From an uncultured Gammaproteobacteria bacterium (GTDB lineage: Bacteria; Patescibacteriota; Patescibacteriia; HK-STAS-PATE-3), in assembly GCA_964637345.1 (NCBI GenBank), contig CAZWTD010000004.1, positions 1 to 63,055 of the forward strand: a stretch of 63,055 bases of DNA, read 5' to 3'. The notes below the pieces were generated by a model that saw nothing but the letters and a program-made list of their open reading frames with translations, did not search any database and had not been told where the DNA came from. Below, one piece after another: positions 7,442 to 63,050 of this stretch. The first letter of the stretch is position 1. Every line of letters begins with the position of its first letter. Both the position numbers and the translations under genes were made by a program.

Positions 7442-8470
7442 CTAGTAGTTCGTTCGAAACCGCAAATCACCGGACAAGGTCAAGCGTATGTCCGGAATAC
7501 CGTAGAGGAGCATCATCAGGCGCTCAATCCCGAATCCAAAGGCAAAGCCGCGGACACGCTTCGGATCCAAGCCCATATTCTTCAAAACAACGGGATGTAC
7601 CATTCCCTGTCCCCCAAGTTCAAGCCAGCCGCTCCGGCCGCAGGTTGAGCAACCTGAACCGTTGCAAATCGTACAACGCATAATAATTTCCGCTCCCGGC
7701 TCAACGAAAGGGAAAAAACTCGGCCGATGGCGCGTTACAACCTCGCGTTCAAACAAGGCTGAAAGAAAATCGTTCACCGTTCCGAAGAGGTCAGTCAAGC
7801 GAATCCCTTCGTCAATAACGAGCCCTTCGCACTGCGTCAAGGTTGATTCATGAGAGGCGTCTGTTGCCTCGTGGCGGTAGACGCGGCCGGGCGCGATAAG
7901 TCGAACCGGCGGTTTCCGTGTTTCCATCGCGCGAAGCTGAACTGGGGACGTATGCGTCCGAAGAACAAGATTCGAGGCGTTGGCAAGATAAAAGGTATCC
8001 CAAAGATCTCGAGCCGGGTGGTCGTCCGGAATATTCAGCAGGTCGAAGTTATACTTCGTTGTTTCCACCTCCGGTCCAGCGAGCACCGCAAAGCCCATCG
8101 AGCGGAAGATCTCCACAATGCGACGCGTTACGATCGTCAGCGGATGAAGACGGCCGGGATAGGCAGGAGCGCCGGGAAGAGACTGCTCGAAGGCCGTCTG
8201 TTTCTCCGCGTTTCGGCCTGAAGATGCCCGGCGCTCAAGATCAATCAAGCGGGCCTTCATGGCATTTGCCGTTTGACCAACGCTTCCCCGCTCGGTTGGA
8301 GGGAGGGTCCCGAGTTGCGCCATCACCTGGGCGAGCCGGCCCTTTCGGCCGAGGTAGTTGACGCGCCAGGCTTCGAGGTCAGCAGGATTTCGAACAAGGC
8401 CAATCTCCCGCTGCGCAGCCGCCTCAAGGTCACGAAGTTCGGAATGGAGCTTAGAAGGGTCGCTGTTCAC
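7442..8470 (-). CDS. pheS: Phenylalanine--tRNA ligase alpha subunit
   Basis: GRLHP, NFDLLNIPDDHPARD, LRTHTSPVQ, FPFVEPGAE, FAFGFGIERL. Probable GTG start at 8470; start position uncertain. Confidence 0.95.
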   Translation of the reverse strand: MNSDPSKLHSELRDLEAAAQREIGLVRNPADLEAWRVNYLGRKGRLAQVMAQLGTLPPTERGSVGQTANAMKARLIDLERRASSGRNAEKQTAFEQSLPGAPAYPGRLHPLTIVTRRIVEIFRSMGFAVLAGPEVETTKYNFDLLNIPDDHPARDLWDTFYLANASNLVLRTHTSPVQLRAMETRKPPVRLIAPGRVYRHEATDASHESTLTQCEGLVIDEGIRLTDLFGTVNDFLSALFEREVVTRHRPSFFPFVEPGAEIIMRCTICNGSGCSTCGRSGWLELGGQGMVHPVVLKNMGLDPKRVRGFAFGFGIERLMMLLYGIPDIRLTLSGDLRFRTNY

Positions 8471-8834
8471 GGGCAAGGAAGAAAAATTCAATACAGGCGA
8501 GGAGGAGGAGATACACGATAAGGTTCCACCAGCGGAGGAAGTCGGCCGTTTCGAGGAGGAGACTCCCGACGAGAAGAAGACTAAAGAAGAATCCTTGACG
8601 GAAGGAGGTGCCAATCTGCCGGAACAGAACAACGCGTCGAGCAAAAATCCGTCGTAATCCCAATCCGACAAGCGAGAAGCTTCCCGTCAGCGCACAGAGC
8701 AGCGTAATAAAAAATGCAGCATGGCCGACCGGCCCGGATACTCCAGGGTCAACCGTAAGGAGCAGAAGGCTCCAAACTGCCCAGGACAGCAGGGTGGCCA
8801 CGCCCATCAGAATAACGTAGCGTCGAACAGTCAC
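8451..8834 (-). CDS. Conserved-type multi-TM small membrane protein
   Basis: About four hydrophobic helices. GTG start at 8834 lies downstream of the promoter. Confidence 0.75.
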   Translation of the reverse strand: MTVRRYVILMGVATLLSWAVWSLLLLTVDPGVSGPVGHAAFFITLLCALTGSFSLVGLGLRRIFARRVVLFRQIGTSFRQGFFFSLLLVGSLLLETADFLRWWNLIVYLLLLACIEFFFLAREQRPF

Positions 8835-8875
8835 TGAGGATGGATGAGAGTCAAAGAGACAAAAAACCCGCTCTG

Positions 8876-8904
8876 ATCGTACCAGAAATACCCCTTCTTC
8901 GCAA
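8876..8904 (-). promoter_or_regulatory. Sigma70 promoter for the membrane protein-pheS-pheT-gyrB operon
   Basis: TTGCGA-N17-TACGAT with extended TG. Confidence 0.7.
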
Positions 8905-8941
8905 GGGATTTTTCCCAAGAATACCGCCTCCGAGTATGAGC

Positions 8942-9016
8942 CTACGACTTCCCTGAACGAAAAGGGCAAATCCGATTAAACTCGCACTCAGCGCAGAGGA
9001 AGGGGTCTGGGGTGGC
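8942..9016 (-). pseudogene. Orphan duplicate of the helicase 3' end (ATPDPFLCAECEFNRICPFRSGKS*)
   Basis: 8958-9013 matches 10395-10450 at 52/56 nt, with a 32-nt perfect core. The differences are synonymous. Confidence 0.9.
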
Positions 9017-9060
9017 GGAGATTCTGTCCTGCGGATTGCTTAAATAATATCAAGGTATAT

Positions 9061-9088
9061 TTGACAATTATATTATTTATGTTATTTT
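9061..9088 (+). promoter_or_regulatory. Sigma70 promoter of the islet gene
   Basis: TTGACA-N16-TATTTT with extended TG in an AT-rich tract. Confidence 0.55.
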
Positions 9089-9130
9089 GACGAGTCCAAA
9101 AATAAAAACTAATAACCATGGAGGTGCCCT

Positions 9131-10255
9131 TTGAAAAAGTATGAGATCTTGCGTGCGATGGGTTGGACTCCGGTCCAAATCGCTGCTTTGCTGGATAGGG
9201 GAATTCCCCAACATGCAAAGGACCAATGCTTCCTCCACCGCTTCTGTCCCGAGCTTCGACCGGAGATTGAAGGGCGGTTAAAGGCGGGTCACTCGACGAT
9301 CAGAGAGTGGGAAAAACTGGCATCCTTAGATCCAGTTCTTCCATTCACTAAGGTTCACGATTTTGTTCTTGATCAGATTCTACCCCTCTTAGGAACTACG
9401 GTCGCCATTATTGATTCAATGTGCCAACTTGAGATGCGAGCAGATTCCATTAATCATCACCCTTGGACCCAGACAGCGTATGCAAGGGCGTTGTCCTTTG
9501 CAGCCAGCCTGGAGGACTGGATTTATCTCTGGCACTTCAGTCACGAAAAAGAAGTATCGAGACGGGCTGAGGCAAAAATCAGAGAGATGTGCTCCACGAA
9601 AGAAGACTGGGTGCACTTTCTTGAGAAGGCGGATGAGCTCGAAGCCTTTGAACGGGAGCTCTACGAATTTGCTGAACGGTTAGTCGGCAGAGAAATGGAA
9701 GATTCTGATCCTGGACTCAGCCTAAACACACACGCAGCCAGATCCACTTCTGATCCGGCGCTTGACTACCTTCGAACAGTTACGGCCTCTCTTCATGGAG
9801 AAATCACCGGAGACCCACAACAACTCTTCCAAGAACTCTTGCGACAGGTGCAGATTCTTCAGAGTGACGACAGCTGCGGTCCAGAACGAGCCTCGGCTAC
9901 CGGCTGGATCATGGATTGTCCGCTTCCCTTTTCTGCCTTCCTAACGGTAGCTAGACAACTCCCAATCGCTACCAAGCCAGAGGAGAAGATCTGGCAGTAT
10001 GTTAGCCGTGACGCTGAGTGTGGGGCGAATGACGCTGTTGTGAAGCGATTGATCGAAACGGCTCAAACACTGAGGGAATGTCACGCGGCGATCAAATACG
10101 CCCCAGACAGTGCTCGGCTAGCTCGCAAGTTCACCGCACTGGCCACATCGATTGAAGACTGGCTCTTTATCTGGAAGTTGGGACTTCAGACGCACAACGC
10201 TGAGCTACAAGACCTCGCATTTGTGAACGCTCTCCAGTATGCCACGGAGAGTTAA
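9131..10255 (+). CDS. Hypothetical alpha-helical repeat protein (islet cargo)
   Basis: GGAGGTG SD before a TTG start, with recurring A-x-[ST]-x-x-[DE]-W units. Confidence 0.7.
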   Translation: MKKYEILRAMGWTPVQIAALLDRGIPQHAKDQCFLHRFCPELRPEIEGRLKAGHSTIREWEKLASLDPVLPFTKVHDFVLDQILPLLGTTVAIIDSMCQLEMRADSINHHPWTQTAYARALSFAASLEDWIYLWHFSHEKEVSRRAEAKIREMCSTKEDWVHFLEKADELEAFERELYEFAERLVGREMEDSDPGLSLNTHAARSTSDPALDYLRTVTASLHGEITGDPQQLFQELLRQVQILQSDDSCGPERASATGWIMDCPLPFSAFLTVARQLPIATKPEEKIWQYVSRDAECGANDAVVKRLIETAQTLRECHAAIKYAPDSARLARKFTALATSIEDWLFIWKLGLQTHNAELQDLAFVNALQYATES

Positions 10256-10279
10256 TTCACAAGCATCAACGGCCTTTTC

Positions 10280-10314
10280 AGCAGCGACTAGCGAGGAACT
10301 AGTCGCTGCTTTTT
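10280..10314 (+). terminator. Intrinsic terminator
   Basis: Perfect 12-bp stem AGCAGCGACTAG/CTAGTCGCTGCT followed by TTTT. Confidence 0.85.
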
Positions 10315-10378
10315 CATATGCTTTCCCTTGCATCAGTCGCCTATTTGTGAGTATCTTTGTACTTTCCTTCTAAAATCT

Positions 10379-13300
10379 CTATCCTCTTCCCGCCCGAAAG
10401 GGGCAAATTCGATTGAATTCGCACTCAGCGCAGAGGAAGGGGTCTGGGGTTGCAACAAAATCTAGAGATTCTATTGCTTGTATTGCGTTGAGCGCCCAGT
10501 CTTTCGCTTTGTCGAGCTCGGCCGGCTTCGGTTCTTTCGTAACTTTTTTGTTTTCATCAATATAGAAAAGGCTCAGTTGGCGAACCGGCCGACCGAGTAA
10601 CTCTGGATCGCTGACTGCGAGCGCGTAGAGGAGAAGTTGATACCAGCGATCAGCCGACGGCTTCTCCTTAGCCGGTCCGGTTTTATAATCAATAATCTCA
10701 ACGCCCTCCGAATCCCCGGGAATCGGATCAACGCGGTCAATCTTCCCGCCGAGAATCCTCCCGTCAAACTTAAGCGTGAAGGATTGCTCAAGAAGAAGAG
10801 GAACAGGAAAGGCGCCTTCTTGTGCCTTGTAAAAACGCTCAAGAACTGCCCATCCCTCCTTTTTTCGTTGCTCCATCTCGCGCTCTGAAGCGTACCATTC
10901 ACGAATCCAGGCTGACGCATACAAGGTCTTGAGTTCCTCAAGCGAAACGAGAGGCTTCGTACCCGACGAAGTTTGGGCGCCGAACAAGCTTCCCTGCTGC
11001 TGAACGCTTCGCTGTCGAACGAGCTGAAAAAAATGATAGAGCGTAGCGTGGATCGACGATCCATAGGACAGTCGCGCGTTACCGGACACCGGAACGTCAA
11101 GGACATAACGATAGCGATATTTCCATGGACAAAGCTCGTAGGCGCTTAAGCGCGAATAGTCGTAACGTTCGTTTGTCCGGACCTTCCGAATAATCGCCTC
11201 GGGCTCTCCGTCCGCGACCCTCTGCGACAAAAGCGGGGCGAGCTTCGGCTGGCGAACTCGCTCTTCAGCAGCAGACTCTTTCGTCACCAACCCAAGCTCT
11301 TCGAGAAACAGAGAAGCTTTTTTCCGACGCGCCCCGCCGTAATCTAAGGCCCGACATAAAATGATATGCTCTTTCGCGCGGGTCAAGGCAACATAAAAAA
11401 GCCGGCGCTCCTCTTCGAGATGAATATCGCCCTCCGGGAGCGGCTCGCGAATCAAGGCATCTGGGACCGGAATTCCCTCGCTCCGGTCGCGGGACGGAAA
11501 ACGCTGTTCAACGAGGTGGACAACGAACACCATGCGAAACTCCAAGCCCTTCGCCGCATGAACCGTCATCACCTTCACGCTATCCGGCCCGTCTTCAGGG
11601 GCGGTTTCGAGCCGACCGAGCTCACCGGCGTCTATCGCAAGATCAATGACCTCAAGGAATGCTCGGACGTTGGGCGCAAGTTTTCCGCGCTCGAATTCAA
11701 CGACCTCGTTTAAGAGCTGATTCGCGTAGCCAATTTCGGCCTCGCGCTTCGGATCATCCGGCGCTTCGCTTAGCCACTTCAAATACCCGCTCTCTTCAAG
11801 GAAGCTTACGATAACTTCTCGAGGCGTAGCGCGACGAGCGAGCTCTGCATGTCGGCTGATAAGGCTCAGGAGCCGGTCAGCGTCTGCATGCGCTTCCGGA
11901 CGCCAATCAGCGAGGAGGGCGTGATCGCGCAAGACGGCGAAGGTCGATCGGCTCTGGCGGCGCGCGGTTTCATTCAAAAGAATGACGTCATCAGCCCGAA
12001 ATCGAAACATCGGGAGATTGAGCACCCGCTGAAGCGCGACGCTTTCATGATAATTGTCGAGAAGTCGCACGTAGGCAAAAATGTCGAGCACGATACTCAT
12101 CCGGTAGAGGCCACGCGAAGCGACGTATTGGTACGGAAGACCGTTCCGTTCCAACTCGGACAGAAAGAGCTCAGCGTGGTCATTAGCCCGAACGAGAATT
12201 GCTACGTCGCTCCAGGCTAGCGTCGCGTCGGCATTTTTCGCCTCTAAAATTTTCCCGACGACCGTCCGCGCCTCTTCAGCCTCAGTCTCAGCCACAACAC
12301 ACTGAATGGATCCGGCGTCCGGTCGCGCTGCAGTGAGTCTCTTAGAAACGGTCGTCCCGAGCTGCTTCGGAGCGGCGCTGAGCTGGGCCTCGAGCCGATT
12401 GGGGTTATTCTTTTGAATAAACGCATACGCCGCGTCGAGGATGGACTGGGCCGAACGGTAATTCTCCGTCAAAACGACGTCAGTGCTGTCCGGATAATCG
12501 TGCTTAAAGCCGAGGATATTCGCGACGGACGCGCCGCGGAACTTATAGATCGATTGATCATCATCTCCGACGACGGTGAGGTTTCTCCGCTTTCCGGCCA
12601 AGAGTTTCACTAACTCGTACTGCGCCCAGTTCGTATCTTGAAATTCATCAACGAGGATGGCGCGGAATTGCTCTTGGTAACGAGCGAGGATCGCCGGCCG
12701 CTCCCGAAAGAGGCGCATCGTCTCAACAATCAGATCGCCAAAATCGAGCCCCCAATGCTCGCGGAGCAAGCGCGTGTAGCGGTCGTAGCTTTCCGCGAGT
12801 TCGCGAAGGCGGTCGAGGTCGAGCGTTTCTTCATCCGCCGACACCCCGGGAACTCCGTCACTCGCATCACGATCGAGCTGAAGTTTTTTTACGAAATCGA
12901 GATAGTCGGCCGGCGTCACTCCCTCATCCTTTAATCGTGAAAAATGACTGACGAGGGATTTAAGAAATTTCGTGGGCTTTCCTGATGGGCGGTAATAGGA
13001 CAAGGGAAACTCGTCGAGGTGTTTTCGGAGAAACAGCCATTGCTGCCGTTCATTGAACAGCTCAAAGTCGCCCGGTAGACCGATATCAATCGCGTACTCC
13101 CGAAGAATGCGCTCGCCAAAGCCGTGGAAGGTCGACACCCACAAATCGAGATAGCCGTAGGGAACGCGCCGGTCAATTCGCTCCGCCATCTCGCCCGCCG
13201 CCTTTTCGGTAAAAGTCAAACACAATATTTCGTCCGGCCGGTACTTCTTCTCGGTCATGAGCCAGGCCATGCGCTCAACAATCACGGTGGTTTTGCCGGT

Positions 13301-13426
13301 CCCGGCCCCCGCGACGATTAAGAGGGGCCCGTCGCCATGCCGAACCGCTCGCTCCTGTTCAGCGTTGAGCCGTACTGCATTCAATTGTCCACCGTTGTCC
13401 CCCGCCGGTACATCGCCTTCCTTCAT
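10379..13426 (-). CDS. UvrD/PcrA-family SF1 helicase fused to a C-terminal PD-(D/E)XK nuclease with Fe-S cysteines (AddA/AdnB-like)
   Basis: AGAGTGKT, VDEFQD, GDDDQSIYKFRGA, ENYRS, TVHAAKGLEF, ERRLFYVALTRA. Nuclease part: CPWKY..GKIDRVD..IIDYKTG..CAECEFNRIC. Confidence 0.92.
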   Translation of the reverse strand: MKEGDVPAGDNGGQLNAVRLNAEQERAVRHGDGPLLIVAGAGTGKTTVIVERMAWLMTEKKYRPDEILCLTFTEKAAGEMAERIDRRVPYGYLDLWVSTFHGFGERILREYAIDIGLPGDFELFNERQQWLFLRKHLDEFPLSYYRPSGKPTKFLKSLVSHFSRLKDEGVTPADYLDFVKKLQLDRDASDGVPGVSADEETLDLDRLRELAESYDRYTRLLREHWGLDFGDLIVETMRLFRERPAILARYQEQFRAILVDEFQDTNWAQYELVKLLAGKRRNLTVVGDDDQSIYKFRGASVANILGFKHDYPDSTDVVLTENYRSAQSILDAAYAFIQKNNPNRLEAQLSAAPKQLGTTVSKRLTAARPDAGSIQCVVAETEAEEARTVVGKILEAKNADATLAWSDVAILVRANDHAELFLSELERNGLPYQYVASRGLYRMSIVLDIFAYVRLLDNYHESVALQRVLNLPMFRFRADDVILLNETARRQSRSTFAVLRDHALLADWRPEAHADADRLLSLISRHAELARRATPREVIVSFLEESGYLKWLSEAPDDPKREAEIGYANQLLNEVVEFERGKLAPNVRAFLEVIDLAIDAGELGRLETAPEDGPDSVKVMTVHAAKGLEFRMVFVVHLVEQRFPSRDRSEGIPVPDALIREPLPEGDIHLEEERRLFYVALTRAKEHIILCRALDYGGARRKKASLFLEELGLVTKESAAEERVRQPKLAPLLSQRVADGEPEAIIRKVRTNERYDYSRLSAYELCPWKYRYRYVLDVPVSGNARLSYGSSIHATLYHFFQLVRQRSVQQQGSLFGAQTSSGTKPLVSLEELKTLYASAWIREWYASEREMEQRKKEGWAVLERFYKAQEGAFPVPLLLEQSFTLKFDGRILGGKIDRVDPIPGDSEGVEIIDYKTGPAKEKPSADRWYQLLLYALAVSDPELLGRPVRQLSLFYIDENKKVTKEPKPAELDKAKDWALNAIQAIESLDFVATPDPFLCAECEFNRICPFRAGRG

Positions 13427-42024: not shown

Positions 42025-42321
42025 TCAATGCGCTGGGGTAATCTTCGGAGCTTTCTTCCGATCGCGAAGAAGCGCAATCCCCCAAATAAGGAAAACCGGG
42101 GCCAGCATCACGAGCCCAAGGAGTGTGGCGTCCGTCATGAGACCATTCGTCTTAGCCTCAAGAAAAGGTCCGCCCTCATAGCCAAGGAGATGGTCAACGA
42201 GGATCATTACGGTCGCGCCCCAGAGCATCAAACATAAGAGTTCAAGGCGAAAGCGCGGACGAAAACGTATCCACGCAAAGGTTGCCAGGAGAGCGGGAAT
42301 TGCTGTTGTGAGCAGCCACAT
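42025..42321 (-). CDS. Small 3-TM membrane protein
   Basis: LCLMLWGATVMILVDH. Related to the next gene. Confidence 0.75.
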   Translation of the reverse strand: MWLLTTAIPALLATFAWIRFRPRFRLELLCLMLWGATVMILVDHLLGYEGGPFLEAKTNGLMTDATLLGLVMLAPVFLIWGIALLRDRKKAPKITPAH

Positions 42322-42324
42322 GGC

Positions 42325-42654
42325 TTAGGCGCGAGGCGAGGCAGTTGAACGACTGGCGACCGTATTCGCAATGAGGACCATGACAGCCCAGAGCGCGACA
42401 ATCGCTAGAGTCATTGTTCCGCCAACGGTCAGGAGCTCCTTTAACATCACCCACGTTTCTTGCGGACTCCGCATCGCCGTCAGAAAAGGAGGAAACGGGA
42501 CAATTTCCTGATGCGCAATGTGCTCAACGAGAAGCATAATCGATCCGCCCCAGAGCATCGCGTTCAACCATTCAATATGATACCGCGCGGGAATTTTTTT
42601 CCGCAGAACGGTTGTGACAACTGCAGTTGCGACGGGGGCGGCGAGACAGGCCAT
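42325..42654 (-). CDS. Small 3-TM membrane protein
   Basis: MACLAAP start at 42654, and LNAMLWGGSIMLLVEH. Confidence 0.75.
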   Translation of the reverse strand: MACLAAPVATAVVTTVLRKKIPARYHIEWLNAMLWGGSIMLLVEHIAHQEIVPFPPFLTAMRSPQETWVMLKELLTVGGTMTLAIVALWAVMVLIANTVASRSTASPRA

Positions 42655-42730
42655 AGAAAAAGATGTTAGGGGTGAATACAAAAATCATACCGTCTTCGGC
42701 CACTCAGCGCAATGCACTGTACATTTTTCG

Positions 42731-62881: not shown

Positions 62882-63050
62882 AATCCCACAGCGTTGGCGG
62901 GATGACAGGGAGGCGTGTTCCACCTTATGAAAGTCTTGGCGGGCTCGATCCCGCCTTCCGGCGGGACGATCTTCGGAGTTTATCCCGCCGTATGGCGGGA
63001 TGACAGGGAGACGTGTTCCACCCTTCGGGTGGTCAGCCGAAGGCTGAAAC
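62882..63050. repeat. Cluster of ATCCCGCC-n4-GGCGGGA palindromes with a 30-bp direct repeat
   Basis: 62895-62924 versus 62993-63022 match at 29/30 nt, offset 98. Hairpins near 62948 and 62982. Confidence 0.8.

Follow-up and report, generated by a model that had tools for sequence, protein, structure and literature searches.

A strain-variable single-gene islet at the 3′ end of a helicase gene in a Patescibacteria bacterium

Cis-mobilizable elements (CIMEs) are an established category of elements that carry no integrase and keep attL and attR sites at the 3′ end of a gene (PMC5704250). The subject of this work is a 1437-bp islet that carries one gene (the cargo gene) at the 3′ end of a helicase gene, in a single 63,055-nt NCBI contig of a Patescibacteria (candidate phyla radiation, CPR) bacterium; this whole contig is referred to here as the window. 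The islet works like a CIME, which is the closest described category, although it is not classed as one. Two of the defining features are present: att-like copies flank it at the 3′ end of its target as a repeat of 59-78 nt, with the gene end restored and all Cys codons kept, and integration and transfer genes are lacking, the islet holding one open reading frame (ORF) with no domain match. As in CIMEs of the ICESt1/ICESt3 type, the direct repeats come from the target 3′ end, the gene end is restored by the copy on the element side, and movement would need a recombinase acting in trans (PMC5704250). Unlike these CIMEs, the islet has no known integrase-bearing relative for its site, consists of one gene (1.4 kb, and 0.5 kb in the related locus described below) without decayed modules, resides in a Patescibacteria host, and has as its flanks diverged coding sequence, 75-78 nt long and with a core of 32 nt, instead of a short identical att. 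The sequence-only reading of this DNA had presented a single-gene version without integrase as the unusual part. This was overstated, since integrase-less att-flanked elements are established (PMC5704250). The islet stands out instead by its minimal size of one gene, by its host phylum and by the fact that a second lineage has an islet at this gene end too.

Other described systems resemble the islet in part. Like an integron cassette, it combines a single ORF with one site, has a size suited to a circle, occupies a fixed chromosomal site and lacks a recombinase of its own, and different cargoes (a protein without known domain and a Nudix protein) stand at the same site in different lineages. 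In contrast to such cassettes, it has no IntI, attI or attC, carries its own promoter and has a site that mimics the end of a coding gene. Integron cassettes were rejected because a perfect terminator hairpin with a 12-bp stem is the sole structured element and no attC palindrome is seen, because an integrase is lacking, and because the insertion lies in the end of a helicase gene. In tycheposon-type islands, the DNA lies between one complete and one partial target copy, with further partial copies of greater age as traces of previous events at the hotspot (bioRxiv 10.1101/2020.12.28.424599). The islet likewise lies between a full and a partial target copy, but tycheposons carry tyrosine recombinases and replication modules and target tRNA or tmRNA genes, none of which applies here; with no tRNA gene found in the window and no recombinase, a tycheposon or tRNA island was also rejected. 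The minimal mobile elements of Neisseria are cassettes between conserved flanks, swapped by transformation and homologous recombination (PMC3787668, PMC1797815). The interval considered here similarly holds different genes in each lineage between conserved flanks, without mobility genes, but the Neisseria exchanges leave no duplication of the flank, whereas the joint of the islet is marked by a duplicated and diverged gene end. Integrative mobile elements exploiting Xer (IMEX) also integrate without an integrase, relying on the host XerCD at dif. However, the islet core is coding, has no dif-like pair of inverted 11-nt arms and does not lie at the replication terminus, and IMEX were set aside after a search for a dif-like 28-bp site, by sequence inspection only, found just a 12-nt imperfect palindrome (CTCAGCGCAGAG) in the core. 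An insertion sequence or transposon was rejected as well, as there is no transposase, the repeat search gave no inverted repeats at the islet ends, and the 75-nt repeats differ at synonymous sites.

The duplicated gene end and the empty allele

The 3′ end of the helicase gene is present twice in the window, as a live end and as an orphan on the other side of the islet (Table 1). Direct repeats of 59 nt at 8958-9016 and 10395-10453 (92% identity, spacing 1437) were returned by a repeat search, and within them 8958-9013 and 10395-10450 are identical at 52 of 56 positions and include a perfect 32-nt core, TCGCACTCAGCGCAGAGGAAGGGGTCTGGGGT. Repeat search and sequence comparison thereby confirmed the coordinates, identity count and core length previously reported for this DNA. 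When up to 3 mismatches are tolerated, the core still matches exactly two places in the window, where 0 are expected (100 shuffles). On the minus strand, the coding part common to both copies reads ATPDPFLCAECEFNRICPFR, after which the orphan has the tail SGKS (stop at 8942-8944) and the live end the tail AGRG (stop at 10379-10381). Both tails are equal in length and share the same TAG stop, so that homology runs over 75-78 nt, with 7 of the 12 bases of the four tail codons differing between the copies. Stops lie 11 codons upstream of the orphan, which is therefore not part of any live ORF.

Over the 21 conserved codons there are six differences, the same six listed earlier from the sequence, and all are synonymous. 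Only 23% of the single-base changes in these codons are synonymous, giving a probability of about 1.4e-4 for six out of six. The 10 codons of the core hold 0 differences, whereas 6 of the 10 flanking conserved codons differ (Fisher p = 0.005), the pattern expected if exchange took place within the core. Synonymous differences combined with freely differing tails show that the two copies diverged as working helicase ends in different lineages and that one of them was imported; judged by this codon pattern, one copy of the helicase end is foreign.

Support from independent read data came from Logan contigs of public runs aligned to positions 7800-11800 of the window. The empty site was found in a wastewater run of 2025 (X8), in a 151-nt contig with a word depth of 2.3 that matches 8880-9013 with 0 mismatches and continues past 9013 as TGCAACAAAATCTAGAG, which is exactly 10451-10467. 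In this empty allele the helicase body runs straight into the orphan-type bases and the SGKS end, which supports the orphan as the ancestral helicase end, as had been proposed. It had also been proposed that the DNA was inserted at the 3′ end of the helicase gene and restored the Cys-rich C-terminus; this is supported by the same contig, by the live end lying in the imported copy and by the gene order of the relatives described below. The occupied junction (9013/9014) is crossed by contigs of the runs X3 (8908-9088), X5 (8872-9022) and X6 (8900-9050), which belong to three other studies, so the integrated form is not an artefact of this assembly. The runs X1 and X2, likely from the source study, contain the whole region, with unitigs (k = 31) that end at the core (9013 and 10450), and twelve additional runs gave no further junction contigs. 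The islet is a presence/absence polymorphism, variable between strains and probably recently acquired. Over the 17 nt upstream of the core, the empty allele does not differ from the occupied one. Had an imported tract extended further upstream and been as diverged there as it is 3′ of the core, the probability of this identity would be about 0.01-0.03, which points to an exchange within the core.

The helicase gene end in related genomes

The order helicase, small membrane protein, pheS, pheT and gyrB is conserved across Patescibacteria. In 86 syntenic relatives with the helicase followed by the membrane-protein and pheS genes, the gap between the helicase stop and the first conserved gene after it varies from 150 nt to 6.3 kb. 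The gap in the window without the islet would be about 135 nt, and the site is thus a variable hotspot in which the empty state is the norm. Residents of the interval include DciA (12 loci), Nudix (5) and DsbA/thioredoxin (3) genes, pairs of HEPN and nucleotidyltransferase genes, a D12 methyltransferase, GIY-YIG, RuvB, QueA and a 2030-aa ORF. No closer relative that might show an assembled empty site was found, as the genome, metagenome, protein and cluster searches end at 59% identity or less.

Orphan ends were sought in about 154 helicase loci by a DNA scan and a hidden Markov model of the C-terminus, and no second intact helicase end was found among them. The closest relative (L002, JAZDMR010000011.1, 59% identity) has a 527-bp islet in the region 8930-9501 with only a 137-aa Nudix gene (9031-9444). 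The Nudix ORF stands directly after the helicase stop and is followed by a degenerate orphan end at 9458-9501 (ALAFEFNTICPFRG and a stop; z = 12.8, spacing 527), in which TGCTCTGGCTTTCGAGTTTAATACCATCTGCCCGTTTAGGG is matched to TGCGCTGGC-TGCGAGTTTAAGACTATTTGTCCGTTTAGGG; the membrane-protein/pheS gene order is lost downstream. L002 has an older, independent and smaller single-gene islet at the same gene end, so the site has been used more than once. A Nudix gene also follows the helicase directly, without an orphan, in L016, L021 and L029.

A third case may exist in L011 (JBGPHQ010000026.1, 2884-3750), although this is doubtful. The order there is helicase, a convergent 227-aa ORF, a stretch resembling the helicase end, an ORF with a histidine-kinase-like ATPase domain, the membrane protein and pheS. 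The stretch is 43 nt long and 77% like the helicase end (FVKFCEYRYIANIG and a stop), but its z of 5.2 is inseparable from chance (4.7 in L051 and 4.6 in L095), and it was missed by the protein-level search. A candidate orphan in L007 (9025-11486) was rejected, as it consists of two full tandem paralogues with a PEP-utilising mobile domain located after the helicase, whose common 109-nt 3′ ends (79%) mimic the orphan-end signal. Across 1.84 Mb, duplicated gene 3′ ends were found only in the window and in these L007 paralogues.

Routes by which the islet may have entered

The 1437-bp unit is probably a recent single-gene islet that entered by a Campbell-type crossover in the 32-nt core. The partners would be the chromosomal helicase 3′ end (B-core-B′) and a mimic of the helicase end on incoming, presumably circular, DNA (P-core-P′), with P′, the mimicking part, maintained as coding. 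One reciprocal crossover within the core would generate the live end (B-core-P′), the islet and the orphan (P-core-B′). The helicase would then be read through the core into the imported end, EFNRICPFRAGRG followed by a stop, with the CxxCx5C cysteines kept and the gene intact, and the original end with its SGKS tail would persist as the orphan beyond the islet, beside the membrane-protein and pheS genes. The islet itself encodes no recombinase. As it encodes only its own expression unit, the recombination enzyme would have to act in trans, either as the site-specific recombinase of a related element (the islet then being CIME- or cassette-like) or as the host RecA acting on the 32-nt identity. 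Within this Campbell-type model the two enzymes are about equally likely, and site-specific integration is plausible; a circular form of the incoming DNA, the place of the crossover and the enzyme behind it are inferences.

Beyond the repeat, 9018-9041 and 10466-10480 both hold GAGATTCT and ATTGCTT. On the orphan side, these are parted by 9 extra bases, and 10-11 bases adjacent to the core are missing. Such shared motifs may be the decayed arm of the incoming site or may be due to chance, the P arm showing patchy similarity at most (AAGCAAT and AGAATCTC, with indels).

Several observations weigh against entry by this crossover. The empty, attB-type junction was seen once, in the single low-depth contig of X8, and a secondary deletion between the repeats could equally have given the same junction. 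Neither a recombinase nor a free element bearing attP was seen: no recombinase or transposase domain was found in about 55 ORFs of the contig (five Pfam batches covering the 63-kb window), and no recombinase in the neighbourhood of the L002 and L011 islets (one Pfam batch). No circular junction was seen either, and the attP junction is not phasable in the Logan unitigs, which at k = 31 break at the 32-nt core. Among the roughly 154 helicase loci there is only one clear and one doubtful further case, and the homologues of the cargo stand in unrelated contexts, so there is no evidence that the cargo gene travels with this att-like site. Over the last ~900 nt of the helicase gene (10427-11330), GC content at third codon positions (GC3) drops from 0.6-0.7 to 0.52-0.58, reaching the level of the cargo gene (0.53), which could mark a longer imported donor tract. 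The 17 nt upstream of the core, which are the only data on the empty allele there, speak against such a tract.

The falling GC3 of the helicase is also one of the points in favour of a one-off transformation event, the main, though unlikely, competitor to the Campbell-type crossover. Here a chromosomal segment of a related species containing the helicase 3′ end and the neighbouring cargo gene would have been imported; homologous recombination in the helicase gene would have anchored it, and its other end would have been joined illegitimately just upstream of the last 78 nt of the recipient gene. Neither a mobile element nor an att site would be involved. Such homology-facilitated illegitimate recombination (HFIR) is documented in competent bacteria (PMC3240628). 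The imported end, which differs only at synonymous sites, does have the look of a genuine helicase orthologue, searches of the contig and of the surroundings of the L002 and L011 islets gave no recombinase, and the Nudix gene natively following the helicase in L016, L021 and L029 means that the L002 islet could be a copied neighbour. However, the illegitimate joint must then lie, by chance, no more than 3 nt from where the sole 32-nt perfect block ends, and both the window and L002 need a joint in the final 50-78 nt of the gene. Moreover, over the 17 nt upstream of the core the empty allele is identical, and no genome with the cargo gene downstream of the helicase was found.

Decay of a larger island in situ is improbable. 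It is the standard origin of integrase-less att-flanked elements (PMC5704250), and the gap between the helicase and the membrane-protein gene is a variable hotspot that reaches 6.3 kb in relatives. Little time for decay is left, however, by flanks that are 100% identical in the empty and occupied alleles and by an intact orphan with synonymous differences only; moreover, the unit is a compact promoter-ORF-terminator arrangement without pseudogene debris, the L002 islet measures only 527 bp, and no integrase is among the 25 top families listed for 77 gap ORFs of 29 loci (Pfam). That no insertion took place at all has next to no probability. Repeats as long as k or longer make de Bruijn graphs ambiguous, and short repeats such as these could in principle come from a gene end duplicated on the spot, as a target-site duplication or by slippage, or from an assembly that threads a separate molecule through a shared 32-mer. 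Yet a duplicate formed in situ would start identical and decay at random, whereas here all six differences are synonymous and the tails are fully diverged, and contigs of three other studies join the orphan-type bases to the left end of the islet. Target-site duplication and a decaying in-situ duplicate are excluded by the synonymous-only divergence, and an assembly artefact is ruled out by this pattern together with the independent junction contigs.

A broader reading is conceivable, though quite unlikely: the clade may have a capture site resembling an integron platform without a linked integrase, into which a trans recombinase repeatedly inserts single-gene circles bearing a mimic of the CxxC end, each time renewing the gene end and pushing older cassettes with decaying orphans downstream. 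If true, this would account for the interval of 150 nt to 6.3 kb with its Nudix, DsbA, HEPN/nucleotidyltransferase, methyltransferase and GIY-YIG genes.

Islet content, target gene and significance

The islet consists of a promoter, one ORF and a terminator, with spacers of 115 nt and 124 nt (Table 1), and its description as one ORF with a promoter, a Shine-Dalgarno (SD) sequence and a 12-bp terminator but no integrase was accurate. GC content is 0.42-0.54 in the islet against 0.55 in the contig, and the GC3 of the cargo gene (0.53) is below the 0.58-0.80 of neighbouring genes.

Table 1. Positions of the islet, its flanking gene ends and adjacent features in the window
Feature	Position	Strand	Description
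Small membrane-protein gene	8451..8807	minus	118 aa; usual downstream neighbour of the helicase; conserved
Hairpin	8890..8909	minus	33 nt downstream of the orphan stop; 7-pair stem, weak T-run
Orphan helicase end (attR-like)	8942..9019	minus	ends in SATPDPFLCAECEFNRICPFRSGKS and a stop; severed from any ORF by upstream stops
Core, left copy	8982..9013	none	perfect repeat
Inserted DNA	9014..10418	none	not in the empty-site allele, except one core copy; inserted unit 1437 bp
Cargo promoter-like site	9061..9088	plus	TTGACA, 16 nt, TG-TATTTT; in an AT-rich stretch
SD	9121-9125		GGAGG
Cargo gene	9131..10255	plus	TTG start, 374 aa; convergent with the helicase gene
Cargo intrinsic terminator	10280..10310	plus	12-bp stem, 7-nt loop, T-run
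Target helicase gene	10379..13426	minus	1015 aa; UvrD/PcrA-type helicase fused to a Cas4/AddB-like PD-(D/E)XK nuclease
Live helicase end (attL-like)	10379..10456	minus	ends in VATPDPFLCAECEFNRICPFRAGRG and a stop; part 3′ of the core (10379-10418) would be the imported replacement end
Core, right copy	10419..10450	none	perfect repeat; presumed crossover region

The cargo protein has a repeated A-x-[ST]-[LI]-E-D-W motif and an all-alpha helical-repeat architecture. An AlphaFold model has 22 helices (predicted local distance difference test, pLDDT, 76), and the structural neighbours found with Foldseek against PDB and BFVD show only weak HAT/TPR-like repeat resemblance, so the model points to a helical repeat only and not to a recombinase fold. 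No match was found in Pfam, PHROGs, PADLOC, NCBIfam or PDB sequences. The family has five members among 1.84 billion representatives. No helicase fragments lie beside the homologues in the contigs L001, L162 and L163 (only four relatives of the cargo exist), and the homologues sought at other helicase ends, as the sequence-only reading had suggested, were not found. Viral contigs yielded neither the cargo nor a sequence coding for CAECEFNRICPFR.

The homologue in L001 (P0002, JGI 3300014656, 43% identity) has the same ribosome-binding site (RBS) and TTG start, and the RBS/start block TGGAGGTGCNCTTTGA is common to the window and L001, while the remaining non-coding ends of both modules are unrelated. 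It is flanked by a radical-SAM/SPASM gene and a 47-aa Cys-rich peptide on one side and by a coiled-coil gene on the other. A perfect 15-nt direct repeat, AGATGAGGGGTGTTT, brackets the promoter-ORF-terminator unit in L001 (1073-1087 and 2314-2328; chance ~0.005 in 3.1 kb). A loose likeness (11/14 with one gap) links this repeat to a stretch of the window core (AGAGGAAGGGGTCTG), and both have the same orientation with respect to the cargo gene. In L163 (Logan SRR22388171), a 455-aa protein encoded at 1036-2403 beside a 28%-identical homologue of the cargo has tandem repeats of ~37 aa (PDFxxxxL) and belongs to no Pfam family.

The target protein matches UvrD-helicase, UvrD_C and PDDEXK_1 in Pfam, and pcrA with a weak cas4 match in NCBIfam, and the PDDEXK_1 domain spans residues 757-1009. 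Its cysteines (C766, C999, C1002 and C1008) form one N-terminal Cys and a C-terminal CxxCx5C, so that both the PD-(D/E)XK domain and the four-Cys pattern of the Cas4/AddB type are present, and this pattern is kept in ~150 orthologues. In the Cas4/AddB family the four-Cys pattern binds an Fe-S cluster, and the helicase C-terminus may do the same, judging from its cysteines and the family. The hairpin downstream of the orphan is probably the original terminator of the helicase gene. The orphan had been placed directly above the promoter of the pheS operon. However, the two are separated by the membrane-protein gene, and a promoter-like site was not found at this place; pheS (to 7442), pheT and gyrB follow downstream of this gene.

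All relatives of the window genes come from metagenome-assembled genomes of Patescibacteria. Elsewhere in the window, a 30-nt direct repeat (97%) at 62895-62924 and 62993-63022, 98 nt apart at the contig end, overlaps the start of a VanZ-like gene. Adjacent small ORFs of 98 and 118 aa at 42025-42681, with a common 39-nt repeat (77%, spaced 330 nt), are probably tandem paralogues.

Patescibacteria have tiny genomes, and to our knowledge little has been described on how they gain genes, their mobile elements being poorly known. The islet provides a clean and datable case of a foreign gene joined into an essential-looking repair gene that is left undamaged thanks to an imported replacement end. 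Populations in wastewater and sludge are polymorphic for it, and an independent islet occupies this position in the closest lineage sampled. Should the enzyme be a recombinase acting in trans, Patescibacteria would have a minimal cassette system; should it be RecA acting on 32 nt, the islet would show that so short a stretch of homology is enough for gene gain in nature. In both cases, the attB, attL and attR sequences are precisely defined.

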